Source: a virus (taxonomy: Duplodnaviria; Caudoviricetes). From it: a DNA stretch of 64,000 bases. Of this stretch, positions 1,503 to 32,616 are shown one piece after another. Where the stretch lies: positions 1-64,000 of the IMG/VR virus record IMGVR_UViG_3300033070_000479; one strand, 5' to 3'. A program made the position numbers and the translations under genes. Below the pieces are notes generated by a model. It saw nothing but the letters and a program-made list of their open reading frames with translations, was not told where the DNA came from and did no database searches. Position 1 is the stretch's first letter, and the number at the start of each line of letters is the position of its first letter.

Positions 1503-1520
1503 GCCGTCTCGGAGACTGCA

Positions 1521-2198
1521 GTGCCAGAAGAGTGCCTAACATGCACCCAGCCGCCTGAAGCACAGACTGAAGTGTCTGCGGCCTCCCTACCGAGCTGCAG
1601 TGAGTTTACGGCCTGGCCTCCGGACCGATTGACTAAGTTCCTATTGAAGTGGTTTCGCTACCACTTCTCTAACGCCGACCTCATCGTCGACCCGGCCCTC
1701 AAGTCAAGGGTGTGGGTCGACGACATCAACAGCCCGATTCACATTTCGACGCTGGCAGAATACACCCCTGCCGACGACGAAAGACGACCGGCTGTGCTCG
1801 TCGAGCGCAGGGACCAACAGAGACTGGCCGAACTAGACGTGCTCGGCGGGACCGGAGGTGACTACGCCCTTGTAGACTCCAACGTCTACATACCGATGGC
1901 CGGACAGACGGTCGTAATGTGCGTCGGCGGTAGAGAGGGTGAGTCTGACGCTATCGCCGCGGAGCTGTTCGGGGAGCTATCGGCCTTCCTGCCGGCCTTA
2001 CAGCAAACCTCATTACCGGAGTTCAAACGGGTGAGGTTGGCGGGTATAGGTCCGCGCCAGCAACTACCCACATTCAAGGATACCTGGACCACCCAAATAT
2101 TCTTGGAGTATCACTATCAGATGGTGTATCGTGTATTCCCGGGAGCTACGGCCCCCGTGAGAGAGATTTACCAAGCCCTGGTCGCAGCTGTATCATAA
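1521..2198 (+). CDS. putative tail completion/terminator protein
   Basis: 225 aa, immediately upstream of the sheath; called from synteny only. Confidence 0.4.
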   Translation: MPEECLTCTQPPEAQTEVSAASLPSCSEFTAWPPDRLTKFLLKWFRYHFSNADLIVDPALKSRVWVDDINSPIHISTLAEYTPADDERRPAVLVERRDQQRLAELDVLGGTGGDYALVDSNVYIPMAGQTVVMCVGGREGESDAIAAELFGELSAFLPALQQTSLPEFKRVRLAGIGPRQQLPTFKDTWTTQIFLEYHYQMVYRVFPGATAPVREIYQALVAAVS

Positions 2199-2219
2199 TC
2201 GAACTACGAGGATTACCAC

Positions 2220-4976
2220 GTGGCCAGACGCGCACTGACCGCAGTTCAAGCCGTTACCGACTCGCAGCCGCTCGACCTCACCAAGTACGCCCGGCTGCGT
2301 CCTACTGTGGTCGCGCCGTACGCCAAGCTGCGTCGCTACACCGTCGACACGGAAAAGCAGAGTCTCGGCGCGTACGTGGTCGGTGCCGACACGACGTACT
2401 CGTGGCCGAGCCTGGCTTATGGTGAGATCGTCGACACGTCTTACGCCAAAATCTACATCGAAGACGGCCTGATTCGGTTCTGGTCCAAGGTCATCGGCGT
2501 TAACGGCACGGCCATTCCGACGTCGTCTCCTCCGAACCGGGTTCGCGCGTCCGCGTTCGTCTTCAAGACGGCCAACGGCACTTCCAGGACGGCGGTGTTC
2601 GGCGACCGCGACGTGGCCATCGGCGACACGGTAGACCTGTCCGCAGTGGTTTCGAGCGTCGTCGTGTCACACCGCTCCAAGGTCACCGGGTACGCGGCTG
2701 ACATGACGTCGGCGTCTATCGGCGCCGCCGTCGCCGCCTCCACCAACGCGGCCGCGCAATCCGCCGCCGGTCCGACCATCACCCAGGTCGCCGGTACGCC
2801 GCTCAACTACGTGGCGTCCGCCGCTAGCGGTACCTACAACTCGGCAGCCGACGGTGGCATCAGCCGGGTGTACACGGTCACCGTAACTCAGTCCAGCACA
2901 GCAGGTTCCGCCCCGACTGCCCGACTGCGGGTGCGGTCCTCAGACGGTCTCGACGACGCCGACAACGTCGTGCCGTCCGCTTTCGGCGCCACGACCGCGA
3001 TCGGCACCAAGGGCCTGTTGATCACGTTGTCTATCGACAGCGGCCGCCCGGTCGATTCCGGCGTCAGTTCTTCGGACCTCATCGCCGGCCAGTCTTGGAC
3101 CGTGTCGGTCGCCCAAGCGTACGTGGTCCCGACGGCTACGTCCGGCGGTACTTACACCGGGACGGTTAACCGGACCTACATCGTGACCGTCTCGACTGGC
3201 GGTACGCTGGCTTCCGGTACCGCCAAGATCACGTGCACGACGGCCTCCGGTACTGACTCGTCCGGTCCGACCACGGTTACCGGCGCCGCGGCGGCAATCG
3301 CGGTCGGTAACTACGGCGCGACGATTACGTTTACCGGCTCTGGTGCGTCCCTCAAGAAGGGCGACGTGTTCTCCTTCGCCGCTGTGGCCCCGGCTGAAGG
3401 CGCTGTCCGGACGCTGGTGCTTCAAGACGACGTTCCTGCGGCGCTGCGAACTGTCGACTGCAACATAACGGTCAGCATTCCGGTTGACGGCGTCGAAGTC
3501 CCGGAAGCCCGCCCGACCAGCACCCTCAACTGGGTCGCGTCCGCGTCCAACATAGTGACCAAGGCAAACGCCGCCATGACTGTGGCTGGTTTGACCAGCG
3601 GCGGCGCGGCCGTTTACGCCCCGATCACGGAAGGCACGCTGTACGCGCACTACCGGGCGTGGAGCTCCGGTACCGCTAAGGTGTTCCGGGTCGCTACGGC
3701 GGCCGACGCCGAAGCTAACGTCGGGCCGATTCACCCGGACAACCCGCTAGGTTACGCGGTCGGCAAAGCGCTGGAAAACACGGCTACGTCTCTGCTCGGG
3801 TCCAACGCCTCGTCCAACGCCGCCGCCAACACCGACGTGGTCCTGGCCGTCCCGGTCACTGGCGACCCGGCTCTGAGCGACTCGTGGACTGCGACGCTGA
3901 ACGGCATCGCTAACGAGTCTGACGCCCACACGCTCGTCATCCACTCGGACTTGGCCGCGGTCCACGCGGTGGCGAAAACCCACGTCGAAAGCCGTAGCAC
4001 CCCGCAGCTCGGCTTCTACCGGACCGCGTTCTGCCCGGCCTCTGTCGCCGAGCCTGTCAGCCTGCTGTCCGGTACGGCTACGGTCACGTCCGGTACTGGC
4101 GGTAACACGCTGGTCACAGCTACTGGTACGACTTTCGTGACGTCGGGCGTCCGCGCCGGCGACACGTTCCGGTGCAACTACACCACTGACGACGCCGGCG
4201 ACCCGCTGTACCAGTCCTACACCGTGTCGTCTGTTACCTCGGAAACGACGCTGTCGCTGGTTACCGGGCCGACGTCCCAAATCCCCGTGGCGGCTACGTT
4301 CCAGCTGTGGCGGTCTCCGACGTCTGACGAAGTTGTAACTCAACTCACGACTGCCGCAGCGGCCTTGGCTTCGCCCCGCGTCTGCCTGGTGTGGCCGGAT
4401 ACGGCTGTGGACACAGACGGCGTCACTGTCAGCGGCGGCGCTGTGGCGGCCGCAGTTGCCGGCCTCAGCGGTAGCGTGGCGTCCCACCAGGGTCTCCGCG
4501 GTATCGGCATCGAAGGCTTTACACTGGCCCCGCGGTCGACCCCGAAGTTCACCGATACGCAACTGGACGCCCTGGCGGCCGGAGGCGTGTTCGTGGTCTC
4601 TCAAGACCCGTCCGGCGGGCTGTTCGTGCGGAACGCGGCTACGACCGACACGTCGTCCGTGTCGAACGCCGAAGAAGCCGTTACCCGCAACGCCGACTGC
4701 GTGCGTCTCGCGGTCGACGAAGCGTGGTCGAGCCTGCGCGGTGTCGCTAACGTCGGCCCCGGCATTGAGCAGTTCCTGAGGACACGACTCGAAGCCGTGA
4801 AGTCCGAGTTCCGGGCCCGCAACCAGATTTCCAGACTCGGCGCCCCGTTCACGGACCTCGTCTACGTGTCCTCGGCGGCCGTGTCTGGTAGGCCGGACGC
4901 CCTACTGATCTCCGTCAACCTGGTCGGCGGTCCGGTTCCGCTGAACGCCACAATGCTGTCCCTGGCACTCATCTAA
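2220..4976 (+). CDS. tail sheath protein
   Basis: 918 aa. Sheath-like C-terminal domain (AAAVAGLSGSVASHQGL...QLDALAAGGVFVV...EEAVTRNADCV), followed by a tube-sized gene. GAGGA Shine-Dalgarno (SD) upstream of GTG. Confidence 0.8.
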   Translation: MARRALTAVQAVTDSQPLDLTKYARLRPTVVAPYAKLRRYTVDTEKQSLGAYVVGADTTYSWPSLAYGEIVDTSYAKIYIEDGLIRFWSKVIGVNGTAIPTSSPPNRVRASAFVFKTANGTSRTAVFGDRDVAIGDTVDLSAVVSSVVVSHRSKVTGYAADMTSASIGAAVAASTNAAAQSAAGPTITQVAGTPLNYVASAASGTYNSAADGGISRVYTVTVTQSSTAGSAPTARLRVRSSDGLDDADNVVPSAFGATTAIGTKGLLITLSIDSGRPVDSGVSSSDLIAGQSWTVSVAQAYVVPTATSGGTYTGTVNRTYIVTVSTGGTLASGTAKITCTTASGTDSSGPTTVTGAAAAIAVGNYGATITFTGSGASLKKGDVFSFAAVAPAEGAVRTLVLQDDVPAALRTVDCNITVSIPVDGVEVPEARPTSTLNWVASASNIVTKANAAMTVAGLTSGGAAVYAPITEGTLYAHYRAWSSGTAKVFRVATAADAEANVGPIHPDNPLGYAVGKALENTATSLLGSNASSNAAANTDVVLAVPVTGDPALSDSWTATLNGIANESDAHTLVIHSDLAAVHAVAKTHVESRSTPQLGFYRTAFCPASVAEPVSLLSGTATVTSGTGGNTLVTATGTTFVTSGVRAGDTFRCNYTTDDAGDPLYQSYTVSSVTSETTLSLVTGPTSQIPVAATFQLWRSPTSDEVVTQLTTAAAALASPRVCLVWPDTAVDTDGVTVSGGAVAAAVAGLSGSVASHQGLRGIGIEGFTLAPRSTPKFTDTQLDALAAGGVFVVSQDPSGGLFVRNAATTDTSSVSNAEEAVTRNADCVRLAVDEAWSSLRGVANVGPGIEQFLRTRLEAVKSEFRARNQISRLGAPFTDLVYVSSAAVSGRPDALLISVNLVGGPVPLNATMLSLALI

Positions 4977-5555: not shown

Positions 5556-8500
5556 GTGGAATACGGCCCCGCAGGACTGACCGCTCGGCTAGACCGGTCC
5601 GCCTCCCGCGAGGCCGGTAAAGCCCCTTATGCCGGAAACGCTGTGTTGGCGGACCCCTACCGGTCTGCCACTGACAGGGTTTCCGGCCCGGGTATTTCAC
5701 AGCCTGCACTTCTGTACGGCGTAGTCGTTGACGCAGTGATGGGCGGTCACGCGTACCGCGTGTCTTCTGGCGAGTCAGGGTTCATCTGGTGCGGTCTGAC
5801 TGGGTTAGGTGCTCTAGGTCCGTTCGGCCAAAAGCCGGTCGACACGGTAGCCATCGGTCAGGCCGTCTTTTACGTCATACGCCCTGAAACCCCTACCATC
5901 GGTACGATCGTCGCTCTGGCCCCCGGCCCCGGTATCGGCCAGGAGGACACTCCCGGTGACGCTGCTTGGCCATTTTTTCGGTCAGGCCACTCCGGCGACG
6001 TATCTCACCGGATCCCGGTCGAAGAGGCTATCGCGTTAGCCGAGGCGGCAGGGCTTCCTGGAGGTATCGACGTTTGGGACTTCTCGTCCGGCAGAACCCT
6101 CGACGCTACGGCAACCGGTGAGCGCGGTTTCCTGGCGGAAACTGGCGTCGGTATCGTCGCCGACTCGTTCCACGTGCAGATGCGCGTCGACGAGCACACC
6201 GGCGTATTCGCCTTCTACCACGATCAGCTTCTGCGTATCGCCGGGGTTAACTTTCAGCAGTGGACGTCGTTGTCCGACGACGAGCAGGTAGACGACGCCG
6301 GCGAGTTGTACGGCGTTAAGCGGACGTGGGTGTACCCTTGGGAAGGGGCAGGCCTGTGGAAGTGGAACCAGGTAACTGGGCGATCCACAGATAACCCGGT
6401 CGTAGACCCGGACACAGGAGTCGAGAACGACAACCCTGACGTCAACGGGATACCCGGCTACAGCGGGCAGGGGTCGCGAGACATCGCGTCTGAGGACGCA
6501 CAGGGCGGTAACGGCCTGGCAGTCCGGGAGACCGCCGACACCGGAGCGCTTCCGGCTGCCAGAGGCTACGAGTTCAGCGGGTACCTGGGACAGGGGACCC
6601 GTACGGTTACGGCTCTACCGCTGCAATTTACGTACGTAGCGCCCGAGGCGGTGGAGTGGACAAATAAAGGCGCCGGGTACTTCTCGCCGAACGAACTAGA
6701 AGACGGCGCCACTACGCCGGCTGACACGCATTTGTTCTTTGACTCGGAGGGCGTGGCCGAGGAGACAGTAGGGGAGCCGAACGACCCAGTCGAAGCGAGG
6801 GTGGAGCAGAACAGACTTAACAACGTTGACGGGTTTCAGCCGGGCGTCATCTCCGAACACCGGACTATGGCCGGCGCGTACCACCTCGCCGCTGCCAAAC
6901 GCATCATCCTCGTCAAAAGGTCGAGTCAGCCAGTACCGCGTCAGAAACGGAAACCGGAGGATCCGGGCGGCGATGAAGCTACTCCTCCGGACGACAGCCT
7001 CAACCCTACCCCGTATACCCCGTCCGGGTTGTCGCCTCCGTCCGGGTACGTCGGTACGGCTGCGGACTGGTCAAGGCACAAAGTACAAGCCGACCTACCC
7101 GACATGGGCGAAGGCCGTAGGGCCAACGCAGTAGCGGACCTTCTGGCGTACGTGTTCAACTGGGAGGCGTCGCACCCGTTCTCGTACCACTTGGGCGACT
7201 GGGATCTCCCTGAAGAAGGCCTGGCCGGCTCTCCGCTGGTCAACCAAGCCATACCGGCGTACGCACGGCTGGCGTGCCGGCAGCACCTCAAAGACCCGCC
7301 GGCGGTATCCCTCGACGTAGACCATCGGTACGGCCCGACGGACTACTACCAGACCGAGTCCGTCATAGCCCTGCTCGATGACGGCGACGTCCTCATCTAC
7401 AACGGTTTCGGAGCGTCGATCCACCTGCATAACGCGGACGTGAACATCGACACCCCCGGAGACATCAACCTCCGGTCCGGGCGCAACATCAACATGTGGG
7501 CCGGGCACGACGTAACGATCAAAGCCCGAGACTCGGTGGACCTGGCAGCTACGAAACACGATATACGGTTATCGTCTGCCAGGAACCTACAGGCCGTCGC
7601 CGGATTCAGCGGGTGCGGCGGTATTCTGCTGGAGTCCCAGGCCGTGTGCCCCGGGTACCAGTTCACGGACTCTGTCGGGGAAGAGGTCAAATCTTCCGGT
7701 ATCGTGATGGTGGCCCCAAACAGCCAGGTCCTGGCCATAAGCCGGGACGTCGTGCTGACGTCTCTCGGCGGAAAGATCATCTGCGACGCCGGCCCGACCG
7801 GAACCGTGCGATCGATCTCAAAGTACCACCACACCGTAGCTTACGGCTCGATCGTTCACGGGTTTGCCGGCAGCGGCGGCATATCGGGGGTCAACGAGTT
7901 CTCGGCGGGCTACACCCTGATCGGGTCCGCCCTGTCAGTTAACGGGTCTGTGTCGGCGATCGGATCTGTCGGCACGGCGGCCCTGTCCGTGTCTACCGGG
8001 ATCACTGCTAGGGACTACGGACTCAGGACGTACATGGACTCCGTCCTGGACGTGCCGTCGGCACCCATCGAAGCGTACGTCGCCGAATTCACAATGCGGT
8101 CTGACGAGCAGATGCTGACGTACGACTTTACCGCCTGGAGACCGCGCTGGATGACGCTGGCCGCCGAATCCGGTCAAGCCTTGACGACGTGGTCGGAGTC
8201 TCCGGTGGTGGCGTCAGCGTCGGGGTACTCGCAGCACCCGTACCCTGGCGGTGCCTGGACCGAGCCCGGGTCAATGCGTTGGTCTAGTCCGTTCCTGACC
8301 AACCCGGAACGTGGGTGGGTGGCACGGTCCAGAAATCCGCAGTCGTTTGACACGTCCGTCGCGGCGTACGAGACTCTTACGCCGGGGGACGTCGTCGAGT
8401 CGAGCCTGGCTGACTCCTGGGTCTCTGTAATACCGGACGACTCGGCGTACGATTACTGCAACTACTACGGCACGCCGCCGGCTATTCCTGGTACATTTAC

Positions 8501-8627
8501 GGCCGGGCTAGTGGGCGGCTGGGGCTGGCCGGACCAGTTGCCTGAGGAGTCGATTTCTACTTCCGTGACTAACGGGTACTGGTCTGCCCCGCCTCCTCCG
8601 CCACCACCACCCCCTCCGTTAGGGTAA
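5556..8627 (+). CDS. putative baseplate central spike (gp5/VgrG-like)
   Basis: N-terminal OB-like region (LLYGVVVDAVMGG) and beta-helix-like repeats (DVNIDTPGDINLRSGRNINMWAGHDVTIKARDSVDL); C-terminal poly-Pro. Confidence 0.5.
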   Translation: MEYGPAGLTARLDRSASREAGKAPYAGNAVLADPYRSATDRVSGPGISQPALLYGVVVDAVMGGHAYRVSSGESGFIWCGLTGLGALGPFGQKPVDTVAIGQAVFYVIRPETPTIGTIVALAPGPGIGQEDTPGDAAWPFFRSGHSGDVSHRIPVEEAIALAEAAGLPGGIDVWDFSSGRTLDATATGERGFLAETGVGIVADSFHVQMRVDEHTGVFAFYHDQLLRIAGVNFQQWTSLSDDEQVDDAGELYGVKRTWVYPWEGAGLWKWNQVTGRSTDNPVVDPDTGVENDNPDVNGIPGYSGQGSRDIASEDAQGGNGLAVRETADTGALPAARGYEFSGYLGQGTRTVTALPLQFTYVAPEAVEWTNKGAGYFSPNELEDGATTPADTHLFFDSEGVAEETVGEPNDPVEARVEQNRLNNVDGFQPGVISEHRTMAGAYHLAAAKRIILVKRSSQPVPRQKRKPEDPGGDEATPPDDSLNPTPYTPSGLSPPSGYVGTAADWSRHKVQADLPDMGEGRRANAVADLLAYVFNWEASHPFSYHLGDWDLPEEGLAGSPLVNQAIPAYARLACRQHLKDPPAVSLDVDHRYGPTDYYQTESVIALLDDGDVLIYNGFGASIHLHNADVNIDTPGDINLRSGRNINMWAGHDVTIKARDSVDLAATKHDIRLSSARNLQAVAGFSGCGGILLESQAVCPGYQFTDSVGEEVKSSGIVMVAPNSQVLAISRDVVLTSLGGKIICDAGPTGTVRSISKYHHTVAYGSIVHGFAGSGGISGVNEFSAGYTLIGSALSVNGSVSAIGSVGTAALSVSTGITARDYGLRTYMDSVLDVPSAPIEAYVAEFTMRSDEQMLTYDFTAWRPRWMTLAAESGQALTTWSESPVVASASGYSQHPYPGGAWTEPGSMRWSSPFLTNPERGWVARSRNPQSFDTSVAAYETLTPGDVVESSLADSWVSVIPDDSAYDYCNYYGTPPAIPGTFTAGLVGGWGWPDQLPEESISTSVTNGYWSAPPPPPPPPPPLG

Positions 8628-8631
8628 AACC

Positions 8632-9453
8632 GTGAACGAATACGAACTGCGTGCCGCGGCTAAAGAGGCATACAATCGCAGAACGGTTGATATGCTACGG
8701 GCTGCTTCTGACTCGTATGTTAAAGAGGCTGAGAGAAGCCTAGATGACCCGGCATATGTGGCAGACGCTACATCTGCCGCAGGGGCTGAGATGAGAAATC
8801 GTGTCGCCTCTAGGTTAATGAATCGAGGAACAGCCTCTTCGGTCGCAGCCGCACTTCCGTATGTATCAAGCAGGTTGCGAAGTATAGGGAACACCGCCGT
8901 GTCTCAGGACTACGGTCAATACGTCTCTATGCCTATTGAGGCGGTCAGATCTCCGCTAGTCGGAACCGCAATAGAAGCAGTAGACCCTACCGGAGGCGTG
9001 ATGACTCGCCTGATGGGAACCGGGGCACTCAGTATGATGCTGCCAGGAGGAGGCCCGGAGGACAGGGCTAAGCTGGTAGATCGGCTGAGAAGAGAAGGTG
9101 TTATAGGGAACGAAGCTGAAACTGAAGATGATTCAGATAACCGCCTAACTACCCTTCAGGCCCTGAGCGCGGCTAGTATGCACGATGCAGATCACCGATT
9201 AGCTGGTCATGAAAGAATAAGAAAAAACAACCCGCTGGCGTACTGGCTGGATCCTACGATCGCGTCTGGGCCTATTCGCGAGCTGATAACCAGGCTATCT
9301 AGACGCGTAGATGCCGTCGGAGCAGACCCGGAACAATACGCCCCGGTTAGGGCTCTCAGCTACGTTCCGATTTTGAATGCTGCTACAGCTGTCGGAGGAG
9401 GGGAAGACACGCGCAGCAGGGTCAGAGGGCTGCTTAAAAAAGAGCTACAGTAA
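8632..9453 (+). CDS. hypothetical protein
   Basis: 273-aa ORF filling the gap between tail genes; visibly lower GC than its neighbours. Confidence 0.55.
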   Translation: MNEYELRAAAKEAYNRRTVDMLRAASDSYVKEAERSLDDPAYVADATSAAGAEMRNRVASRLMNRGTASSVAAALPYVSSRLRSIGNTAVSQDYGQYVSMPIEAVRSPLVGTAIEAVDPTGGVMTRLMGTGALSMMLPGGGPEDRAKLVDRLRREGVIGNEAETEDDSDNRLTTLQALSAASMHDADHRLAGHERIRKNNPLAYWLDPTIASGPIRELITRLSRRVDAVGADPEQYAPVRALSYVPILNAATAVGGGEDTRSRVRGLLKKELQ

Positions 9454-9476
9454 CCACGAAAACACAGGAGACTTCT

Positions 9477-10169
9477 GTGATATCCGCTAAGTTGTCCGCA
9501 GACCCGACGAAGATGGACGCCGACGCCCTGGTAACCCTCGGCGTCGACCCGGCTAAGCTTAAAGAGACCATCGACAAGAAGTCGGCTGAGGCTGCCCCGA
9601 AAGAGGCAGATAAGCCGCACCCGCCGTGTGCCAGGTGCGGCTGGGCCTCTAAAGACGCTCCGTCCCCGGAACCCACACCGGGCGACAAACTGGAGCTGAT
9701 TCGGGCTCTGACGTCCACCGGCCTGTTCCGCAAGGAATACAGCCTGTTCGGCGGGGCAGTCACTGTCATGCTGACAGACTTGACCCGCGAATCTGTCGAC
9801 AAGGCTTCGGACGAAGCACAGAGCGAATTCCGGGAGTGGCTGGAGAAGAACCCCAATCCGACTGATACCGCCGTGGGGCTCATGTTCCAGGAGAAAGTGC
9901 TACGTGCCGTAGACCTGCGGACGGCGGCCTCCGTGGAATACGTCTCGGTCAAGGGCCCCGACCAACCCTCAGGAAAGATTGTGTACACGCGCCCGGATAA
10001 CTGTGACCCCAAGGCGGCCTACGACGCCCTTAACAAGACGGTGTTCTCATCTTCCGTAGTCTGGGGTGCCGTGGCCGCGTCGTCCCAAGACCTGCAGACT
10101 CTACTGGCGACCTGCCGCACGAGGGCCTACGACCAAAATTTTTGGCAGGCCTCCACCGCTGCTGGGTGA
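9477..10169 (+). CDS. putative tail assembly chaperone (lambda G-like)
   Basis: CAGGAG SD; lies upstream of the tape measure; carries an in-frame slippery heptamer near its 3' end. Confidence 0.55.
   Translation: MISAKLSADPTKMDADALVTLGVDPAKLKETIDKKSAEAAPKEADKPHPPCARCGWASKDAPSPEPTPGDKLELIRALTSTGLFRKEYSLFGGAVTVMLTDLTRESVDKASDEAQSEFREWLEKNPNPTDTAVGLMFQEKVLRAVDLRTAASVEYVSVKGPDQPSGKIVYTRPDNCDPKAAYDALNKTVFSSSVVWGAVAASSQDLQTLLATCRTRAYDQNFWQASTAAG
10136..10142 (+). other. candidate programmed -1 ribosomal frameshift site A_AAT_TTT
   Basis: X_XXY_YYZ heptamer in the reading frame of 9477..10169 (codons CAA AAT TTT); the -1 frame stays open to 10573. Confidence 0.55.
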
Positions 10170-10573
10170 CGCTAAGACTAGCCGCCCGCGGCTCTCCCGG
10201 CTTCTGCGCGCACGGCGGAAGCTACGAGCCGCTGCGGCGGCACTTAGTCACGATCGCCGCCGAGATGGAGGAGGCTGCTACCCTCATGATGGCTACCGGC
10301 ACTAAGGCCGGTATCGAGGCTGCGTCGGCCGCGCTATTCGGTTATCCTAATACGGACGAGATGAAGGCTGTCGACGAAAAAGAGGAAGCCGAGGCGTACC
10401 GCAGGATGACCGGTATCGACCCGACCAATCCTGATGACGTGAAGTCGGTGGAAGACAAGATGAAGGAGATTAAGCGTAAGCGGCAGGAGAAGGCCGCCAT
10501 GCAGGAGGCGGCAAAATCCGCCAAGCCTAGGCCCAACACCAAGGCTACGTTTCAGAGAAAGAAGAAGAGGTAA
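10142..10573 (+). CDS. tail chaperone extension (lambda T-like), probably translated as a frameshift fusion
   Basis: In the -1 frame relative to the upstream ORF and begins right at the slippery site; Lys/Glu-rich helical C-terminus. An independent start at ATG 10286 cannot be excluded. Confidence 0.5.
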   Translation: MAGLHRCWVTLRLAARGSPGFCAHGGSYEPLRRHLVTIAAEMEEAATLMMATGTKAGIEAASAALFGYPNTDEMKAVDEKEEAEAYRRMTGIDPTNPDDVKSVEDKMKEIKRKRQEKAAMQEAAKSAKPRPNTKATFQRKKKR

Positions 10574-10582
10574 CAGGCTGCC

Positions 10583-13237
10583 ATGGCTGACCCGTATCGC
10601 GATGCCATGTACCGTCAGCTGCTGGACCAACCGCAGACGTTTCGCGGCGCGCCCCCTCCGGCACTCCCTCCGATCTTCGGGCAGGAGTTTCTAGGGCCTA
10701 AGTTTGCCGGTATGGCGTCGATGTTGATGCCGTCCGTGATGAACCTGTTTCAGCAGGCTGTAGGCGGACTAGCCGGTTCGTTTAACGGAAGCCGTGACTT
10801 GTACTCCGTGTACGAGTCCAACAAGTACGCCACGGACATGACGGCCGCCAGGTTCAAGGCGGCTCGTGACGACAATGACCGCATCTACACCCAGTTTGCC
10901 GGTCTCAACAGGGCTTTTAACCCGGGCTCGGTTACTGGTTTTGACGCTAAAGGTAGACCCACGTTCTCTCCGGCTATGGAGGCGCAACTCCGCAATCAGA
11001 CAGACATTGCGACCAAGATGCTCCCCATCCTGTCGCAGTTCGCCCCCGACGCCGTGGACAGCTTTGGTGGAAGACTGGGTCTCCGATCTACGGCTATTCA
11101 GAGTTTCGTAGAGGCTTCGCGGTTTCTACCGAACGAGAGAGGCAGGGCCGGAGGCGTCGACGCGGCCCGTGTGGCCGACTCGGTGTTCAAAGACATCTAC
11201 GCGGACGAGACCGCCAACTCGGTGAGCGGACTGCGGTCAATTCGTGTTGGCCAGCTATTCGACAGTCTCGTACGGTCCGGCAATATCGGCGGCGGTAATG
11301 AAGAGCAGATCGCCAAGAAAGCCGGTGAGGCTATCAAGGCGCATGCCGCTAAGATCCAGGCCGTTAACGACCTGTTCACCGAGAACGGTCTCGACAACGC
11401 CCCGATGGACGTCCTGATGAAGGGTCTTGAGAAGTTGTCGGCTACGCGCGGCAGTGCGTCAGAGGCCACCGTAGCGGCCGATCGGGTTAGGCGGCTCCGT
11501 GAAGCCACGAGAATTAGCGGACTGCAGTTTTCTGAGCTCGTCGACATGCGCGATCAGTACGACGCCAGGGCTCGCGGTCTCGGAGTCAGGGCCGGGCTGT
11601 ACGGCGAGGCGGTACACCAGTCCGTGGCGTACGCCCAGGCGTTCTCGAAACTAGGATATGGGGATATCGGCAGGTCATCCGCCTCGACGTTGAAGCGCGA
11701 CGAGTACATGGCGGCCGACGCTCAACTCAGGGCGGACGCCGGTGCTAGCGGTATGGGTAACTTGGTAGGGGCCATCCTCGCAAGTGCCGGAGACGCTACG
11801 GCCGGGTCAGAGTTTGCAAACCTAGCTAAGAGCATCCGAGAAACCGGAAAGCTGCCGGCGTTCATGTCTGGCGGCGACGCCATGGGCCGTCTTTCGAAGA
11901 TGGCCGAGGCGTCAGGGCTGTCGGGGCAGGTGTTCCAGCGTCAGGTGTATTACGGGCGTTTCGGGAACATCGAGGCGTTGGCGAATGAGACTAGCGGAAA
12001 CGCCCTTAATGCCGTCAGGGAAAGCGGCCAGAGCCGTGAGTACGAGGCTTTCTTGCGGGCACAACTGGGCGGGGCCGCCGCCGCTATGGGCGTCGGCGTT
12101 GACACCCTCATAGCGGACCTTAGATCAGCGTCTGGCGAGAAGGACCAGGCGGCCATGGCAGACGCCATAGCCAAGAAGTACGGCAAGGCGGGCGCGGCGA
12201 CACAGACGCTCAAGACGGCGCTCAACGAGGCCAGCACCTACGGAGTACCGGCCGGAGTTAGTGCCGGGTCTGAAGAGGCGCTTAAGTACTCAGTACAAAA
12301 CAGACTCAGGTTGACGAACCCGGAGGCCATTAAAGCCGCTAAAGAAGCCCGTAAGGACATGGCCGAGGGCGCCAACGTACGAAACGCGCTCGAGGCCCTA
12401 GGCCGCGACGACGTCGGGCGCAGGCTATTTCAGGAGTTCGCCGGTCTGGCCCAGGCCGGTCCGGTTGATCCTAAGCGTGAGCAGGACGTCATCAAGCGCA
12501 TGTCTCAGGCTGCTGCCAGACTCGTAGGTGTTGTGCCGGAGGCCGCGATACGGGAGCAGCTCCAGGGCATGGACCGCAAGGCGCTGGCAGAGCTGTCAGA
12601 CAACCCGCGTACAGGTGAGCTGGTCGATAAGGCACTTAACCAGGGGGCCGGTGCCGGTGCCGTCGGAGGCGGTGCAGGTGCTGCCGCGCACAAGGCCGTT
12701 ACCGACGCGGAGAAGAAGGCCGCCGACAACGACAAGCCGACACCGGTTAAGATCATTAACGCCCTCGACCTCAACGACGTCGGGCGCAGGCTATTTCAGG
12801 AGTTCGCCGGTCTGGCCCAGGCCGGTCCGGTTGATCCTAAGCGTGAGCAGGACGTCATCAAGCGCATGTCTCAGGCTGCTGCCAGACTCGTAGGTGTTGT
12901 GCCGGAGGCCGCGATACGGGAGCAGCTCCAGGGCATGGACCGCAAGGCGCTGGCAGAGCTGTCAGACAACCCGCGTACAGGTGAGCTGGTCGATAAGGCA
13001 CTTAACCAGGGGGCCGGTGCCGGTGCCGTCGGAGGCGGTGCAGGTGCTGCCGCGCACAAGGCCGTTACCGACGCGGAGAAGAAGGCCGCCGACAACGACA
13101 AGCCGACACCGGTTAAGATCATTAACGCCCTCGACCTCAACGTCAACATATCCGGTAAGGTAGATATGCCGGGCGGCGGAGAGATTAGGGCCAGTAACCT
13201 GAACATTACCGCCACTCCCAGAGGGGGTAACGCGTGA
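10583..13237 (+). CDS. putative tape measure protein
   Basis: Long Ala/Gly-rich helical protein between the chaperone pair and the baseplate genes. Confidence 0.6.
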   Translation: MADPYRDAMYRQLLDQPQTFRGAPPPALPPIFGQEFLGPKFAGMASMLMPSVMNLFQQAVGGLAGSFNGSRDLYSVYESNKYATDMTAARFKAARDDNDRIYTQFAGLNRAFNPGSVTGFDAKGRPTFSPAMEAQLRNQTDIATKMLPILSQFAPDAVDSFGGRLGLRSTAIQSFVEASRFLPNERGRAGGVDAARVADSVFKDIYADETANSVSGLRSIRVGQLFDSLVRSGNIGGGNEEQIAKKAGEAIKAHAAKIQAVNDLFTENGLDNAPMDVLMKGLEKLSATRGSASEATVAADRVRRLREATRISGLQFSELVDMRDQYDARARGLGVRAGLYGEAVHQSVAYAQAFSKLGYGDIGRSSASTLKRDEYMAADAQLRADAGASGMGNLVGAILASAGDATAGSEFANLAKSIRETGKLPAFMSGGDAMGRLSKMAEASGLSGQVFQRQVYYGRFGNIEALANETSGNALNAVRESGQSREYEAFLRAQLGGAAAAMGVGVDTLIADLRSASGEKDQAAMADAIAKKYGKAGAATQTLKTALNEASTYGVPAGVSAGSEEALKYSVQNRLRLTNPEAIKAAKEARKDMAEGANVRNALEALGRDDVGRRLFQEFAGLAQAGPVDPKREQDVIKRMSQAAARLVGVVPEAAIREQLQGMDRKALAELSDNPRTGELVDKALNQGAGAGAVGGGAGAAAHKAVTDAEKKAADNDKPTPVKIINALDLNDVGRRLFQEFAGLAQAGPVDPKREQDVIKRMSQAAARLVGVVPEAAIREQLQGMDRKALAELSDNPRTGELVDKALNQGAGAGAVGGGAGAAAHKAVTDAEKKAADNDKPTPVKIINALDLNVNISGKVDMPGGGEIRASNLNITATPRGGNA
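12408..13142 (+). repeat. exact 366-bp tandem direct duplication (122 codons, in frame)
   Basis: 12408-12773 matches 12774-13139 with no difference found on base-by-base reading; 3-nt ACG microhomology at the junction. Confidence 0.95.
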
Positions 13238-26790: not shown

Positions 26791-27135
26791 ATGAGCGTTC
26801 AAGGAAGCAGCGACAACCTGATCAGCGTCACGTACCAGCCGGCCAGCTCGGACGTGCCGGTGGTCGTCCAGCTGCCGGCAGGCAGCACGGTCGGGCACTT
26901 GCTCGCCCACCGGGCGGTCAACTCCTCGGCGACTGGTCTGGTGTTCTTGGTCAACGGCAACAAGTCCACCACGGAGACGATTCTGTCGGAGGGCTCCCGG
27001 GTCGTCTCGATGAAGGCCAAGGTGGCCGGGGCCGTGCTCGTCGGTCAGGAAGACGACATCTACGCGATCGACGCTAGGCTGGCTGCCGGTATGGAAGCGG
27101 CCTACAAGGCCTTCAAGGCCTGCGCCGGGCTCTAA
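26791..27135 (+). CDS. ubiquitin-like (beta-grasp, ThiS/MoaD-like) protein precursor
   Basis: VQLPAGSTVGHLL...FLVNG...TILSEGSRV beta-grasp signature; fold ends at KVAG (G80) and is followed by a 34-aa extension. Confidence 0.75.
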   Translation: MSVQGSSDNLISVTYQPASSDVPVVVQLPAGSTVGHLLAHRAVNSSATGLVFLVNGNKSTTETILSEGSRVVSMKAKVAGAVLVGQEDDIYAIDARLAAGMEAAYKAFKACAGL

Positions 27136-27141
27136 GACAGA

Positions 27142-28293
27142 ATGTTAACCGAAGCTCAACGCTCCCACGCCGCCGCGCAATTTGCCGCGGCGGCGTGGTC
27201 TTTGTCTACCGCGGCATGCCAGAGTGCGCCGCGCGGACCGTGGATCAACGAGCTGGCGACCTTATCCCACGCCATCTACGAAAAGACCAGTCGGTACAAC
27301 GCGGCCGTTCAGAGCCCCGCATCGTACGGCGGATCTCGAGGCGTGGCTACCAGATTCAAAGAGCTGAAGCAGGCGTGCGCCAAGTGGCGGAGTACGTACG
27401 CGAGGGCTATGGCCGGAGGACTCAAAGATCTGTCGTGGACGAGGCAGTCGGCGATTCCAAAGACCTTGGTGCAGACGGCAGAATCGGGTCTGGTGGGTTT
27501 GGAGAAGGACGGGTTCGTCCTCACGTACAGCATCGAGCAGAAGACTCTGACAGTGCATGCTCGTGAGCCGACGATAATCGAGCTACAGTACGACCACGCC
27601 GTTCACGGGACCGGCAGCAGCGCGGCGAGAACTAGGCTGGAGAAGATAAAGGCGTCTTTCCCGATCCCGCTAAACTTCGGGAGGATGAAGCTCACGTTCA
27701 GCCTCGGCAATACCGACATGCTGAACTACGACGCGTACATCAACGCCATGGCTAGATGCGCCTTTACTGGGTCCAAGACGATAAAGAGCGGCAACTACTA
27801 CCACCCGCACGTCAAGAGCGACGGGGTGGTGTGTCTGGGCGATACGGTCCGGGCCTGCAACAACATGTTCAAGAGCGGGTCCATCAGCGAGATCGTGCAC
27901 ATCTTCGCGTTGGTGTGTTCGAACTACAACAGGCACAGCCCGTACATCGATCTGCACAGGTTCGTCCTACCTTCCTGCGGTGCATGCGGTGGGTGGGAGT
28001 GTCCGCCGACTCAGGAACAGCGCGAAGACGTAATCAAGAAGTGCTTCTCGTGCCGAAGGGACGTCTGCCGTCGCAATAGGTGCTCGGAGGTGTGCGCTGA
28101 GACTGGTAACTTCGCGTGCATGTCCTGCCTCAGGAAGTGTACGGCGTGCAGCAGGGGTTACGCCGTCAACAGCAAGGGGTTCGCGTCGTTCGTGTCTTAT
28201 CCGGGTAAGTGCGGGGTCTGTACGGGCACGCTGCCGGCCAGCACCCTGCTATCCGAGCAGTCCGAGACCGGCACACAAGGGCCGTCTACGTAA
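27142..28293 (+). CDS. E2 (UBC-fold) conjugating enzyme fused to a Cys-rich zinc-finger region
   Basis: YYHPHVKSDGVVCLG matches the E2 HPN(I/V)..G.ICL motif (C231); NYNRHSPY matches the downstream N..SP motif; 14 Cys in aa 279-360. Confidence 0.75.
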   Translation: MLTEAQRSHAAAQFAAAAWSLSTAACQSAPRGPWINELATLSHAIYEKTSRYNAAVQSPASYGGSRGVATRFKELKQACAKWRSTYARAMAGGLKDLSWTRQSAIPKTLVQTAESGLVGLEKDGFVLTYSIEQKTLTVHAREPTIIELQYDHAVHGTGSSAARTRLEKIKASFPIPLNFGRMKLTFSLGNTDMLNYDAYINAMARCAFTGSKTIKSGNYYHPHVKSDGVVCLGDTVRACNNMFKSGSISEIVHIFALVCSNYNRHSPYIDLHRFVLPSCGACGGWECPPTQEQREDVIKKCFSCRRDVCRRNRCSEVCAETGNFACMSCLRKCTACSRGYAVNSKGFASFVSYPGKCGVCTGTLPASTLLSEQSETGTQGPST

Positions 28294-29268
28294 GTGATCA
28301 CAATCAACAGAAGGACAGATAATATGCCAGACGGCGGACCGGTCATCTCCGGTGAAATCGCGGCGACGGACAAGTCGAATTCGGTAGTGAAGACCAGATT
28401 GCGCGGGGTGGACAAGGACGGCAACGCGCACAGGCTCGTCATGAGCCCTACCGCGTTCCTGCAGGCGAAGACCATGGTGTTCTGCGACGATAGGGAGATA
28501 TCGGCCATGGCGGTCGTCGCCGAAGACGACCCTCTGTACGTCGAGCGCTTCGACATCGTCGAACAGGAAGGCAGCTCGGCCTTTACCGAACTTGACGGCG
28601 CCGCCCTCCTCTGCCGGTCCGAGTCCTACTCTCAGTTGGGCATCGGGTACGACAGGACTATGCGGGTGTGGTTCCACACGCACCCGTTCAGCTGTGCGGC
28701 TAACCCGTCCGCCACCGACAACAGCACGTTCGCGGACGTGTTCGGCAACATGCCGTTTGCCGTGATGCTCATTCACAGCAAGGACGGCAGTTGGGGCGCC
28801 ACACTGCGGGTCGGGCAGGGCAAGATCGGCGTCAAGACCAAGCTCTCCGGAGTAGAGGTCGACTGGTCCGCCGTACCGGACATGCCGGCGTTTGACCCGC
28901 AATCCGTGATCGACGAGGTCAAGAAGCAGGTCAAGACGCGGGCGTACCAGGCCGTGCAGTTTTATCAGCCGACGCACGCTGTCAGCGGTAAGCGCTGGGA
29001 CAGCGATTACGGCGGCAACCGGTGGTGGGACAAGGCGACGAAGGTCGACAACGGACCGATCACGCACGCCGGCGGCGTGGTGAAGGGGAAATTCGACGGG
29101 GGTTACGGTCCCAGCGAGGAATACCGCCCGAACCGTAAGACCAAGAAGCGCCGCCGCACCAACGTGTCGTACGAGGACGCCGCGAAGATGTGGGAGACCG
29201 ACTTTGCGGACGCCGACGCCCTGGAAGAATACCTGCGTAACGCCGAGCAGCACGATGCGGGCGAGTAA
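28294..29268 (+). CDS. JAB/MPN+ (JAMM) metalloprotease (putative Ubl-processing enzyme/DUB)
   Basis: E68...H128-T-H130-P...S139-x-x-D142. Alternative start at ATG 28324 with an AAGGA SD. Confidence 0.88.
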   Translation: MITINRRTDNMPDGGPVISGEIAATDKSNSVVKTRLRGVDKDGNAHRLVMSPTAFLQAKTMVFCDDREISAMAVVAEDDPLYVERFDIVEQEGSSAFTELDGAALLCRSESYSQLGIGYDRTMRVWFHTHPFSCAANPSATDNSTFADVFGNMPFAVMLIHSKDGSWGATLRVGQGKIGVKTKLSGVEVDWSAVPDMPAFDPQSVIDEVKKQVKTRAYQAVQFYQPTHAVSGKRWDSDYGGNRWWDKATKVDNGPITHAGGVVKGKFDGGYGPSEEYRPNRKTKKRRRTNVSYEDAAKMWETDFADADALEEYLRNAEQHDAGE

Positions 29269-29956
29269 CGTCGTCGACACGCCGATCAGTGCGCGAAACG
29301 AGCGCCAGCGGTCGGTCTTGCCTGAGGCGGCTCTCTTGTTTCGTCCGGCAGTAGTCATCGGGGTGGGGGCTATCGGACGCCCTACGGCCGAGATGCTGTC
29401 CGGTACCGGTGTTCGCAGGCTGGACCTCTGGGACTTCGACACGGTCGAAGAGGTCAACATCGGCAACCAGGGTTACAGGCCTTCCGACGTCGGTAAGCGT
29501 AAAGCCGACGCCTGTAAAGAGTTCTGCGTGGCGAAGTCGCCGTCCTCGGCCGTGCGCGCCATGTACGAGGCGGTCGGCCCGTCCACGTCTATCACGGACG
29601 AAAGTCCCGAAGACGTAGCGGTGTTTTGCTGCGTGGACAAGATGTCCGCCCGCAAGGAGATCGCCTCTCTCTGCAAGGCGAACGGGGTTGGCCTGTTTGT
29701 CGACACCCGCATGCTGGGGGACGACGTACGCGTCTACTGCTGCCGTACTCCTGAAGCGTACGAGGTGTACCTTAAGGAGCTGTTTACAGACGAAGAGGCC
29801 GAACCCGGACGGTGCGGGAATTCCTCTAACGTCTACGCGTCAAACACGGCCGCCTCTCTGGCGGTCAAACTGTGGACCTTGTGGCTACGGGATCTCCCGA
29901 GCCCCAAGGAAGTTGTGGCGACCCTTAGCGGGTTCGCAATCGTGGCCGACTACTAG
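29255..29956 (+). CDS. ThiF/MoeB-family E1-like adenylating enzyme
   Basis: VIGVGAIG, DFDTVEEVNIGNQ, GKRK, FCCVD and FVDTRM motifs; candidate catalytic C187 (EPGRCG); no CxxC zinc motifs. Confidence 0.9.
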   Translation: MRASNVVDTPISARNERQRSVLPEAALLFRPAVVIGVGAIGRPTAEMLSGTGVRRLDLWDFDTVEEVNIGNQGYRPSDVGKRKADACKEFCVAKSPSSAVRAMYEAVGPSTSITDESPEDVAVFCCVDKMSARKEIASLCKANGVGLFVDTRMLGDDVRVYCCRTPEAYEVYLKELFTDEEAEPGRCGNSSNVYASNTAASLAVKLWTLWLRDLPSPKEVVATLSGFAIVADY

Positions 29957-29993: not shown

Positions 29994-31334
29994 GTGGCCA
30001 AAGCCAAAGGAACTTCCGCGTCTGTGGCGCAATCGCTGCCGTCGACTCTGACCGCCGACGGCATCGAGGACATGATCGTCAAGTGTGTGCAGTCCCACGT
30101 GGTCCCGATGATCTGGGGTCCGCCAGGGGTCGGTAAGACCCGTCGCATCGAGGCCGTGGCCCGGCGTCTGGCCCAGCACACCGGGTTGTCGGCAGAAGTT
30201 CACACGCTGATCTGCTCCATGTGCGAACCCAGCGACCTGGCCGGCTTCCCGATCGCTGACGGAAAATACCGCCGGCCGGACGGGTCGGACTTGTCGGTGG
30301 TCCAGTTCGCTCCGCGGGAGTCCTTTGTGCGCTTGGCGACGCACGGCGGCGTCCTGTTCTTCGACGAGCTGTCCACGGCCCCACCGTCCATCCAGGCGGT
30401 GGCGCTGCGGATCATCAACGACCGCGTCGCCGGCGACATTCACTTGCCGCCGAACAAAGTCGCCATGATCGCCGCCGGAAACCCGCCCGAAACGGGGGCC
30501 GGCGTGTTCGACCTGTCGGCGCCGATGGCCAACCGGCTCTGCCACCTCCAGTGGCCGACGGACTCGCAGTTCCGCCGGGCCTGGGCGGAAGACTTCATCT
30601 CGTACTGGGGCAGCCCGCCGAAGGTGGAGTTCAACGGCCGGCAGGTTCCGGAGGAGTTCTACTCGCGGGCCCGGCGCGCCGTCTCGGCGTTCATCATGGC
30701 GAGCCCGGAAAACCTGCTGCCGGTTCCCGGTCAGTCCTCGACCGGAACCGGTACGATCGCCGACCTGGCGTACCCGACGCCCCGGTCGTGGGACGCCGCG
30801 GCCCGCGTGCTGGCGTCCGGCGAAAGCCGGCTGTTCGATAAAGAGGAGGGCCAGGCCATGCTCAGCCTGATCTCCGGCCTCGTCGGCACCGGCCCGGCGC
30901 AGGCGTTCTCCAAGTTCATTCGCGACTCGGACCTCCCCGACCCGGTCCGGCTGCTGGAAAACCCGGAGTCGTACCAGCCGCAGAAAGAAAACTTCGTGGC
31001 TTACGCGACCGTGACGGCCGTCGTAAACCTGGTACTGTCGTACCTGGCCGTGAGCCGGGATGAGCTGCGGGCGGCCAAGTCTTCGGACCCCGTCTACCGC
31101 AAGGCCGTCAAGTACGTCATGAACGGCGCCAAGCTCGTGGTGGCCGCCGGCGAAGGACGTCTGGAAACGGCCAAAGGCCCTCTGGACCGGCTGCTGGCGG
31201 CGGCCCGGGAAGTCCACCTGACGCAGCAGGAGCAAGTGGCGCTCAACTCCATCACCGCACCGTATGCGAAGGACATGCAGCGGTACAAGAACATGGTCGT
31301 CACCAGCGTTCGGACCGTCTCCACGGAAAAGTGA
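29994..31334 (+). CDS. MoxR-like AAA+ ATPase
   Basis: Walker A GPPGVGKT, Walker B LFFDE, AAGN sensor 1, LSAPMANRL, PTPRSW; CAGGAG SD before GTG 29994. Confidence 0.9.
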   Translation: MAKAKGTSASVAQSLPSTLTADGIEDMIVKCVQSHVVPMIWGPPGVGKTRRIEAVARRLAQHTGLSAEVHTLICSMCEPSDLAGFPIADGKYRRPDGSDLSVVQFAPRESFVRLATHGGVLFFDELSTAPPSIQAVALRIINDRVAGDIHLPPNKVAMIAAGNPPETGAGVFDLSAPMANRLCHLQWPTDSQFRRAWAEDFISYWGSPPKVEFNGRQVPEEFYSRARRAVSAFIMASPENLLPVPGQSSTGTGTIADLAYPTPRSWDAAARVLASGESRLFDKEEGQAMLSLISGLVGTGPAQAFSKFIRDSDLPDPVRLLENPESYQPQKENFVAYATVTAVVNLVLSYLAVSRDELRAAKSSDPVYRKAVKYVMNGAKLVVAAGEGRLETAKGPLDRLLAAAREVHLTQQEQVALNSITAPYAKDMQRYKNMVVTSVRTVSTEK

Positions 31335-31347
31335 GGACCAGACGACG

Positions 31348-32616
31348 ATGACTAGTTCAGAACGGATTACTGCGGCCAAGTTGCTGGCCGTGCAGTGGTG
31401 GCCGTACTTGGCGGACGCCGTCGTCCGCCTCCCGGTCAGGTTCTCTCCCGGCGTCCCGACCATGGGCGTCTCGAAAGATTGGATCCTGTACATCAACCCG
31501 GAATGGGCGGACAAGCAGAGCGTGGCGATGTTGGCCCTCATCATCGCCGGTCACGAAGTCGGTGGGCACCTGCTCAACGACCACGCGTGCCGCGCAGCCG
31601 GGTTGCACCACGAACTGTCGAACATGGCCGGCGACTTGGCCATCAACTGTCACCTGAAGAACTACCGCGACAGCGCCTGCTTGAGCGGTGCGAAGGATCA
31701 GATCACGGTCCCGGATGACCCTGAAGAGGCCCTCTATCCGAAGAACTTCAAAGCCAAGGACGGTACGCCTTTTCCAGACAACCTGATGATGGAGGAGTAC
31801 TACGCCCTACTCCTCGACAACGCCACACTCATCGGTACCGGCCAAGGGAAAGGAGACGGCAAAGGGAAGTGCAAGTGCGGGTCCGGCGCCACCGGGGTCG
31901 CGGAAGACTGGGAGGAGGGCACGTCTGTCGGACAAGACGGCCAAGACCAAGGAGTCAGTCCGGCGGAAGCGTCTCTGATTCGCGACGCGGTGGCTGCTGC
32001 GTGCAAGAAGCACGAAGAGCAGCGCGGACGTGGGTCAGTGCCGTCCGGGCTACTGCGGTGGGCTGACGACAGGCTCCGCCCGCCACAGGTTCCCTGGACG
32101 ACGCAGATACGCAGGCACATCCAGCGTATCGTGGCGGGGCGCGGCAGGGGTGACTACTCCTACACGCAGTACAACCGCCGGTCTCAGGGTCGTCTGATTC
32201 TGCCGGGCATGGTTGAGCACAAGAAGAAGTGCAACGCGGTTCTGGACACGTCCGGAAGTATGTGTGACGAACGCATACGGGCCGGCTTGTCCGAGCTGGT
32301 GGCGGCGGCTTCTCACCTTGGCCCTATCCAGCTGTTTGCGTGCGACGCCGCGGCGGCTGACGCCGGTACGCTGCGTACCAAATCGGACGTGAAGAAGCTG
32401 AAACTGCAGGGCGGAGGCGGCACCGACATGGGTGCAGGCCTGAACGCCGCCGCAGAGTCCAAACCGACGTTTACGTTGGTACTAACCGACGGCGACACCC
32501 CGTGGCCGGAAGACAAACCTACGGGGTTAGGAGAAATCCTGGTCGTGCTTATCGGCCGGTACGGGGCAGACCGAGTTCCGGACTGGGCCGAATGGGTGGC
32601 TGTCGACGACGGCTGA
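31348..32616 (+). CDS. metallopeptidase-like domain plus vWA domain protein (DUF2201-type)
   Basis: HEVGGHLLNDH, NMAGDLAIN, CGSGA; MIDAS residues DTSGS, GGGGTD and LTDG; GAGGA SD before ATG 31348. Confidence 0.85.
   Translation: MTSSERITAAKLLAVQWWPYLADAVVRLPVRFSPGVPTMGVSKDWILYINPEWADKQSVAMLALIIAGHEVGGHLLNDHACRAAGLHHELSNMAGDLAINCHLKNYRDSACLSGAKDQITVPDDPEEALYPKNFKAKDGTPFPDNLMMEEYYALLLDNATLIGTGQGKGDGKGKCKCGSGATGVAEDWEEGTSVGQDGQDQGVSPAEASLIRDAVAAACKKHEEQRGRGSVPSGLLRWADDRLRPPQVPWTTQIRRHIQRIVAGRGRGDYSYTQYNRRSQGRLILPGMVEHKKKCNAVLDTSGSMCDERIRAGLSELVAAASHLGPIQLFACDAAAADAGTLRTKSDVKKLKLQGGGGTDMGAGLNAAAESKPTFTLVLTDGDTPWPEDKPTGLGEILVVLIGRYGADRVPDWAEWVAVDDG

Follow-up and report, generated by a model that had tools for sequence, protein, structure and literature searches.

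The window, by which we mean the whole stretch of 64,000 nucleotides analyzed here, comes from a virus record of 79,985 bp. Its baseplate-like and glycosyltransferase genes have four genes downstream of them on the + strand, coding for proteins of 114, 383, 314 and 233 amino acids. They form a cassette on a single strand (26791-29956), in the order ubiquitin-like protein (Ubl), E2-like protein, JAB and E1. Throughout the text, a slash within a motif marks a cut site or a repeat junction. The features of the cassette are the following:

26791-27135, + strand: Ubl precursor gene (114 amino acids plus stop), with a weak match to Pfam ThiS and profile matches to SAMP2 and ThiS in the PDB.
26791-27030, + strand: predicted mature Ubl, residues 1-80, composed of a beta-grasp and a flexible AKVAG tail, as indicated by AF2, Foldseek and the invariant G80.
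27028-27033, + strand: predicted scissile bond G80/A81, based on the P1 and P1' residues of homologs, the junctions of poly-Ubl proteins and the VAG/A site of BilA.
27031-27132, + strand: predicted 34-residue C-terminal pro-peptide A81-L114, unconserved, with gene-like GC at the codon positions and modeled by AF2 as disorder and a weak helix.
27142-28293, + strand: E2-like protein of 383 amino acids, with the motif HPHVKSDGVVC231LG and a Cys-rich C-terminal region (codons checked).
27165-27198, + strand: very stable conserved RNA hairpin, 30 nt past the Ubl stop and within codons 1-20 of the E2-like ORF.
28324-29268, + strand: JAB/JAMM metalloprotease, the predicted processing enzyme, with E58 at 28495-28497 and HTHPFSCAANPSATD at 28675-28719.
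29255-29956, + strand: minimal ThiF-type E1 of 233 amino acids, with GVGAIG at residues 36-41 and the invariant C187 at 29813-29815 (codons checked).

The Ubl reading frame (26791-27135, + strand) runs through 114 amino acids without a stop and reads ...SMKAKVAG80 followed by a 34-residue extension with AAG100 and CAG113, exactly as the first-pass annotation had described it. Codons 27019-27033 encode KVAGA, the last residue is L114, and AG dipeptides end at G31, G80, G100 and G113. Sequence comparison indicates the ATG at 26791 as the likely start: a 76%-identical homolog (P0002) begins at the aligned position, and AAGGG lies approximately 10 nt upstream of the start in both genes. Independent gene calls on other contigs also return 114 amino acids. 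Moreover, the same protein occurs on five contigs that stem from at least three samples, and the 34-residue extension is therefore not an assembly error.

We modeled the Ubl with AF2 starting from a small family alignment and obtained a structure of moderate confidence (mean pLDDT 65.9). The model displays the elements of a beta-grasp, with strands at residues 10-16, 24-29, 50-54, 57-59 and 70-75 and a helix at residues 34-40. Residues 77-89 are disordered (pLDDT < 50). The peptide released by the proposed cleavage had been described as helical, and a helix is indeed modeled at residues 90-112, at low confidence only (pLDDT 53-61). When compared with known structures by Foldseek, the Ubl core resembles MoaD, the ubiquitin of Caldiarchaeum subterraneum, SUMO and SAMP1 over approximately 72-80 columns (E-values from 6e-5 to 1e-3). 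The family profile matches SAMP2 and ThiS in the PDB and places G80 on their C-terminal glycine. The Ubl sequence scores 17.6 bits against Pfam ThiS (PF02597), below the gathering cut-off of 22.5, and we would thus base its putative kinship with ThiS on profile and modeled fold rather than on a curated threshold. Searches of the Ubl in PADLOC, PHROGs and NCBIfam returned nothing usable, and tblastn against GenBank phages gave no match.

In the model, the body of the beta-grasp would span residues 1-75 and G80 would lie five residues past the last strand, a geometry that corresponds to the LRLRGG tail of ubiquitin. G80 thus ends a short flexible tail beyond the last strand, as does the conserved glycine of the ThiS/MoaD/SAMP/ubiquitin superfamily. 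JAMM and E1 enzymes such as Rpn11, AMSH and E1 itself read a tail of about five residues on the body of the Ubl.

We collected relatives of the cassette in two ways. Using the E1 alignment as bait, we found related minimal E1 genes on 258 IMG/VR contigs and kept 80 loci, in which a HMM of the Ubl core detected 47 distinct Ubls beside related E1 genes. In addition, a profile search over 5.8 billion proteins returned 5,138 matches, and the best 120 of them were inspected. Judging from these 5,138 database matches and from the 258 contigs with a related E1, the Ubl family is very large and mostly virus-borne. An exhaustive phmmer search returned one close relative, namely P0002, which is 92 amino acids long and whose 76% identity to the window Ubl extends through KVAGA. 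Past this motif, P0002 has a tail of 18 residues that has diverged from that of the window Ubl.

G80 is the sole invariant column in an alignment of 22 diverse relatives, which is far beyond chance, and is among the three invariant columns in an alignment of nine sequences. Together with the position of the last modeled strand, this bears out the initial reading that the beta-grasp ends at a single conserved glycine. Among the 47 Ubls from phage loci, 46 have glycine at this position and none ends there. Beyond the glycine, they retain one residue in 23 cases, two in 12 and three in five, while the other tails measure 5, 6, 10, 13, 18, 33 and 34 residues. The 34-residue tail of the window Ubl is the longest among those examined, where others reach 18, 20, 29 and 33 residues. 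The first residue after the glycine (P1') is Ala in 23, Asn in 19 and Ser in three Ubls (45 out of 47 together). Among the best 120 of the 5,138 homologs, P1 is Gly in all 120, P1' is Ala in 119 and none of them ends at the glycine. Tails are 1-4 residues long in 104 of these 120 proteins and 29 residues at most, and the rare long ones (9-29 residues) share no sequence. More distant matches consist of Ubls in tandem. Successive repeats meet at ...K[IV][DE]G/A... or at ...VKG/N..., so that the junction is G/A or G/N at the equivalent of G80/A81. From these relatives we derived the cut-site consensus K-[VI]-x-G/A. Every relative examined carries at least one residue past the glycine, which suggests that the Ubl is made as a precursor, as originally proposed.

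The predicted processing enzyme has all the catalytic residues that are expected of a JAMM protease. E58, H118, H120, S129 and D132 are invariant in an alignment of 25 JAB sequences and were checked at the codon level in the window. They form the E...HxH...S..D motif, with eight residues rather than seven between HxH and S. In 76 related phage loci, the gene immediately preceding E1 encodes a JAB with HxH...SxxD. The JAB family profile matches Rpn11 (E-value 1.3e-9), as well as CSN5, PfJAMM1 and AMSH. The AF2 model of JAB has pLDDT above 90 across most of residues 35-205, and its top Foldseek match is the C. subterraneum Rpn11-homolog:ubiquitin complex (6fnn, E-value 2.5e-8), with further structural matches to Rpn11 and to PfJAMM1:SAMP2. 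As a single sequence, JAB scores 13.3 bits against Pfam Prok-JAB (cut-off 25), and phmmer of JAB alone against the PDB returned no match, so that the PDB matches required the family profile. Nor was there any usable match of JAB in PADLOC, PHROGs or NCBIfam, and the PHROG label 'HNH endonuclease' that is attached to the JAB and DUF2201 proteins is weak and not credible.

A side observation concerns the JAB gene of another related locus, L007 (8559-10361; the same in L008). This gene is split into a first part that ends in ...RVWVH (stop at 8834) and a second part that resumes, at approximately 9060, with THPGSSPNPSSTD..., so that an insert of approximately 220 nt interrupts the HxH motif. Either an intron or a small mobile element could explain it, or the gene may be broken. 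A search of the insert against Rfam returned no match.

Altogether, we favor, with a probability of roughly 0.75, the reading that the Ubl gene encodes an inactive precursor that is cut by JAB at G80/A81 and whose tail is discarded. The parts of this reading differ in strength: on the basis of the sequences, cleavage at G80 is highly likely, the neighboring JAB very probably trims the tail, and the tail itself is likely dispensable. Cleavage by JAB at G80/A81 is well supported by comparison because G80 is conserved, all relatives are capped, poly-Ubl repeats join at G/A and a JAB with intact catalytic residues always accompanies E1. What the sequences and models show is the fold, the conservation, the linkage of the genes and the intact catalytic motifs, whereas cleavage, its position, activation and transfer are inferred. 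The initial choice of the adjacent JAB as the expected protease was thus sound. According to the mechanism that we propose, the JAMM/JAB zinc protease would bind the body of the Ubl and hydrolyze the G80-A81 bond, yielding Ubl(1-80) with a free glycine carboxylate and a 34-residue peptide. Adenylation of G80 by the minimal ThiF-type E1 would be possible only after this step and would probably yield a thioester on C187; E1 would then load the Ubl onto C231 of the E2-like protein, so that it can be conjugated to targets. Similar reactions have been described in other systems. In Ensifer aridi, BilC processes BilA at G97/A98, within the sequence context ...VAG/A (10.1101/2023.09.26.559546), and in C. 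subterraneum a Rpn11 homolog removes a pro-peptide of nine amino acids from a pro-form that is refractory to E1 (PMC5654768). Since the cut site can be read from the sequences, clear constructs can be designed for the phage Ubl pathway, namely Ubl(1-80), G80A and JAB E58A.

The genes downstream of the cassette offer another candidate for the removal of the tail. A MoxR AAA+ gene and a DUF2201 (metallopeptidase-VWA) gene follow E1 in the window (29994-32616). The product of the latter (31264-32616) has a putative metallopeptidase domain and is encoded on the same strand approximately 4 kb downstream, so that it might act in place of JAB. We consider this extremely unlikely, as the MoxR/DUF2201 pair lies within 7 kb of the cassette in at most one related locus whereas JAB lies beside E1 in 76. 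We also discarded MoxR/DUF2201 as part of the Ubl machine, given that BLAST found a match in no more than that one locus. A joint machine that would tag, unfold and cleave is unsupported because the pair is unlinked to the cassette in related phage loci.

The tail of the window Ubl differs from the rest of the protein in its rate of change. When the window is compared to the locus of the closest relative (L001), nucleotide identity drops from 75% in the Ubl core to 27% in the tail (with 42 gap columns) and rises again to 65% where the next gene begins, which makes the tail the fastest-diverging and least conserved segment of the locus. The first-pass annotation had suggested that the released peptide might have a role of its own. 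Given this rapid divergence, an independent role is unsupported; furthermore, long tails in other members have unrelated sequences. The tail would most likely be a weakly constrained pro-peptide. As everything past the glycine would be removed in every member of the family, the stop codon is free to shift, and family members indeed have tails of between 1 and 34 residues. The distance between the Gly codon and the start of the E2-like gene points in the same direction: it is 111 nt in the window and ranges from 13 to 394 nt in the relatives, where most of it is untranslated. The spacing in the window is therefore within the range of the relatives, which fits the drift of a stop codon in a protein with a discarded C-terminus. 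We also evaluated RNA structure in the tail-coding region as a reason for the spacer and rejected it, as the folding energy is not unusual (z = -0.73).

The further AG motifs of the tail had been put forward as alternative cut sites, an idea that we abandoned. The tail contains 10 Ala, 3 Gly and two AG dipeptides, a count that shuffled sequences match by chance (P = 0.20). AAG100 and CAG113 are absent in P0002, do not conform to K-[VI]-x-G, and are separated from the fold by 25 and 38 residues, which is too far.

The second of these motifs is also the basis of a different reading, in which the tail is retained, the activated end is G113 and only L114 is removed, so that the modifier would consist of the beta-grasp with a helical extension. 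The window Ubl (P0001) ends in ...CAG/L and P0002 in ...VFG, and both thus have a glycine at or next to the C-terminus. Such an end has no counterpart in 45 of the 47 relatives, which stop 1-13 residues past the conserved glycine; moreover, the CAG/L context is unlike K-[VI]-x-G/A and G113 is placed 38 residues from the last strand of the modeled fold. We therefore regard activation at G113 as quite improbable.

Some constraint on the tail is possible because its GC content is gene-like at the three codon positions (0.71/0.45/0.82), residues 90-112 are marginally amphipathic when drawn as a helix (P about 0.05) and tails of at least 18 residues occur in both this phage and its closest relative. 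Three of the tails with at least 13 residues (P0001, P0002 and L030) have in common the string RL[AV][AN], which could be residual homology or chance. By analogy with the fusions between ubiquitin and ribosomal proteins, the tail might be cut at G80 and still be functional, either as an autoinhibitory latch that delays activation or as a released amphipathic peptide with its own target. The codon-position GC (in particular at the third position), the marginal amphipathicity and the shared string would all fit such a role, as would the 33-residue Lys-rich tail of another phage Ubl (L007, 3064-3597). We nevertheless consider it unlikely. No segment of the locus is less conserved than the tail, most relatives have only 1-4 residues past the glycine, the long tails found elsewhere (29, 20 and 14 residues) are unrelated in sequence and the helix is of low confidence. 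Furthermore, the 111 nt from the Gly codon to the E2-like gene fall within the range of the untranslated spacers of the relatives. That the long tail is a functional module rather than the product of drift, be it a timed pro-domain that keeps the Ubl inert or a released peptide, appears improbable to us. If it were true, the tail would be a bacterial-virus analog of ubiquitin fusion precursors.

A separate observation was made at the border between fold and tail. The region 27001-27078 of the window (Ubl residues 71-96), VVSMKAKVAGAVLVGQEDDIYAIDAR, is identical in 16 out of 27 positions to one PQQ-type beta-propeller repeat of P0012, and this likeness produced several multi-repeat matches in the exhaustive search. 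We rejected a kinship with PQQ beta-propellers, since the likeness is that of a short strand-turn-strand, inflated by the summation over repeats, and is probably due to chance. The resemblance suggests a possible hairpin rather than a helix for residues 81-96, and for this reason we are cautious in calling them helical.

The E1 is clearly an adenylation domain of the ThiF/E1 type. It matches Pfam ThiF (6.8e-22), and its profile matches ThiF and UBA in the PDB (E-value 4e-15); C187 and other invariant residues are seen in the family alignment. Against the PRTRC_ThiF model (TIGR03736), it scores 35 bits and does not reach the cut-off of 144.75. In PADLOC-DB 2.0.0, E1 matches CBASS E1-E2 models only. 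The E2-like protein gave no UBC match in Pfam, PADLOC, NCBIfam or PDB sequences, nothing usable in PHROGs and, as a single query, no relatives among viral contigs or in a word-indexed protein database. Its relatives were found through gene position and iterative search inside the related loci. In the resulting alignment, G180, H221, P222, H223, C231 and G233 are invariant, and the HPH...C motif recurs in the E2-like genes of related loci. The sequence thus points to the 383-amino-acid protein as a probable E2, an identity that is not established because the invariant HPH...C motif is its only support.

The C-terminus of the E2-like protein (27970-28230 in the window) is a Cys-rich array with many CxxC pairs. 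A Cys-rich end is common to many E2-like relatives, with 12-39 Cys in the last 150 residues, and the RING/FYVE-like profile matches of this region are weak and non-significant.

The affinity of Ubl and E1 to ThiS and ThiF raises the question of whether the Ubl is a protein modifier at all. It might instead be a sulfur carrier of the ThiS/MoaD type, which JAB would mature for thiocarboxylation. The best sequence matches of the Ubl are ThiS, SAMP2 and MoaD, the E1 is a minimal ThiF-like enzyme and relatives are named 'ThiS' or 'thiamine biosynthesis' in public records. Three features make this reading very improbable. In the window and in many relatives, an E2-like gene with an invariant HPH...C motif is found between Ubl and JAB; poly-Ubl forms exist; and the cassette is virus-borne, with no thiamine or molybdopterin genes among the surrounding ORFs examined. 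The public labels ThiS, ThiF and 'thiamine biosynthesis' on cassette genes are therefore probably misleading.

A modifier precursor processed by JAB, which remains our preferred reading, places the cassette close to known systems. It resembles most the Type II Bil operons with BilA and BilC, such as BilABCD of Ensifer aridi, in the single reactive glycine and its ...V-A-G/A context (Chambers et al., 10.1101/2023.09.26.559546). Where the Type II Bil operon has E2 and E1 genes, the phage cassette has an E2-like gene and an E1 gene, and in both a JAB/JAMM peptidase of the same operon would remove the residues past the glycine to permit adenylation by E1. There are however several differences. The overhangs of Bil measure 1-9 residues and that of the phage Ubl 34; Bil is a bacterial defense operon whereas the phage cassette lies on a virus record; the phage E1 is a minimal ThiF-like enzyme of 233 amino acids; and the phage E2-like protein has a Cys-rich C-terminal region and no detectable UBC homology. 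Searches of PADLOC, Pfam and NCBIfam placed Ubl, E2-like protein and JAB in no curated family, and PADLOC-DB 2.0.0 has no match for these three. We did not file the cassette as Bil because it is virus-borne, its E1 is minimal, its E2 is unverified and no curated model is reached at threshold.

Two further systems share parts of this arrangement. C. subterraneum has a pro-Ubl with a C-terminal pro-peptide and a neighboring JAMM protease (PMC5654768). The archaeal protein ends in Gly-Gly followed by nine residues, compared to a single glycine and 34 residues in the phage, and the archaeal operon has a separate RING E3. In the tail assembly protein I of lambda and T1, a conserved glycine ends the beta-grasp of a Ubl and is followed by further sequence, and the JAB domain of protein K was predicted to cut the Ubl free at that glycine (Iyer, Burroughs and Aravind 2006, PMC1779556). 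Those phages lack E1 and E2 and the extension is a separate globular domain, whereas the cassette in the window has an E1/E2-like set and an unconserved tail. We searched the literature for phage Ubl cassettes of this kind and found no paper, which does not prove their absence.

Eukaryotic ubiquitin is an obligatory precursor, encoded either as polyubiquitin with a cap residue or as fusions to ribosomal proteins, and is processed mainly by Cys-protease DUBs. Similarly, the relatives of the phage Ubl comprise head-to-tail poly-Ubl proteins with a short C-terminal cap, and some genes encode a longer extension. Processing by JAB looks obligatory, as for eukaryotic ubiquitin and unlike the occasional processing in Type I Bil, because every member examined is capped. 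The ribosomal-protein extensions of ubiquitin are conserved and functional, whereas the tail of the phage Ubl is unconserved. Overall, the mechanism is ordinary and only the length of the tail is unusual. The finding alone adds little mechanism, since capped Ubls and the removal of the cap by JAMM proteases are already known from BilA as well as from archaeal and eukaryotic ubiquitin.

At the beginning of the E2-like ORF we detected a further conserved element. The hairpin at 27165-27198 was identified in a scan for terminator-like structures and has 13 pairs, 12 of them GC. The window hairpin has a folding energy of -30.8 kcal/mol (z = -5.1), compared to -36.1 kcal/mol (z = -7.1) for the one at the corresponding site of L001 (10315-10348). 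The two hairpins differ in sequence and both pair fully. They may act as an attenuator or a stabilizer, leading to the production of more Ubl than enzyme. In the window, a U-rich run follows the hairpin, and an alternative TTG start of the E2-like gene (27202) is found just past it.

Two of the related loci deserve mention. In L007 there are two complete Ubl cassettes, which belong to different subtypes. The one at 159-3597 has the order E2-JAB-E1-diUbl with G/N junctions, and its di-Ubl is the one with the 33-residue Lys-rich tail past the last glycine. The second (6001-11040) is triUbl-E2(Cys-rich)-JAB-E1 with G/A junctions. This organization suggests that a single virus has two orthogonal tagging systems. 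The other locus is an example of the JAB-E1 pair in GenBank phages and belongs to a cultured phage, Flavobacterium phage FpV4 (L090, NC_041872.1, 59441-68992), and has a JAB (gp51, HIHSH...SGTD) and a minimal E1 (gp50). The annotation of gp50 as 'thiamine biosynthesis protein' is probably wrong. The Ubl HMM detected no Ubl within 4.5 kb of this JAB-E1 pair. FpV4 could serve as a culturable model.
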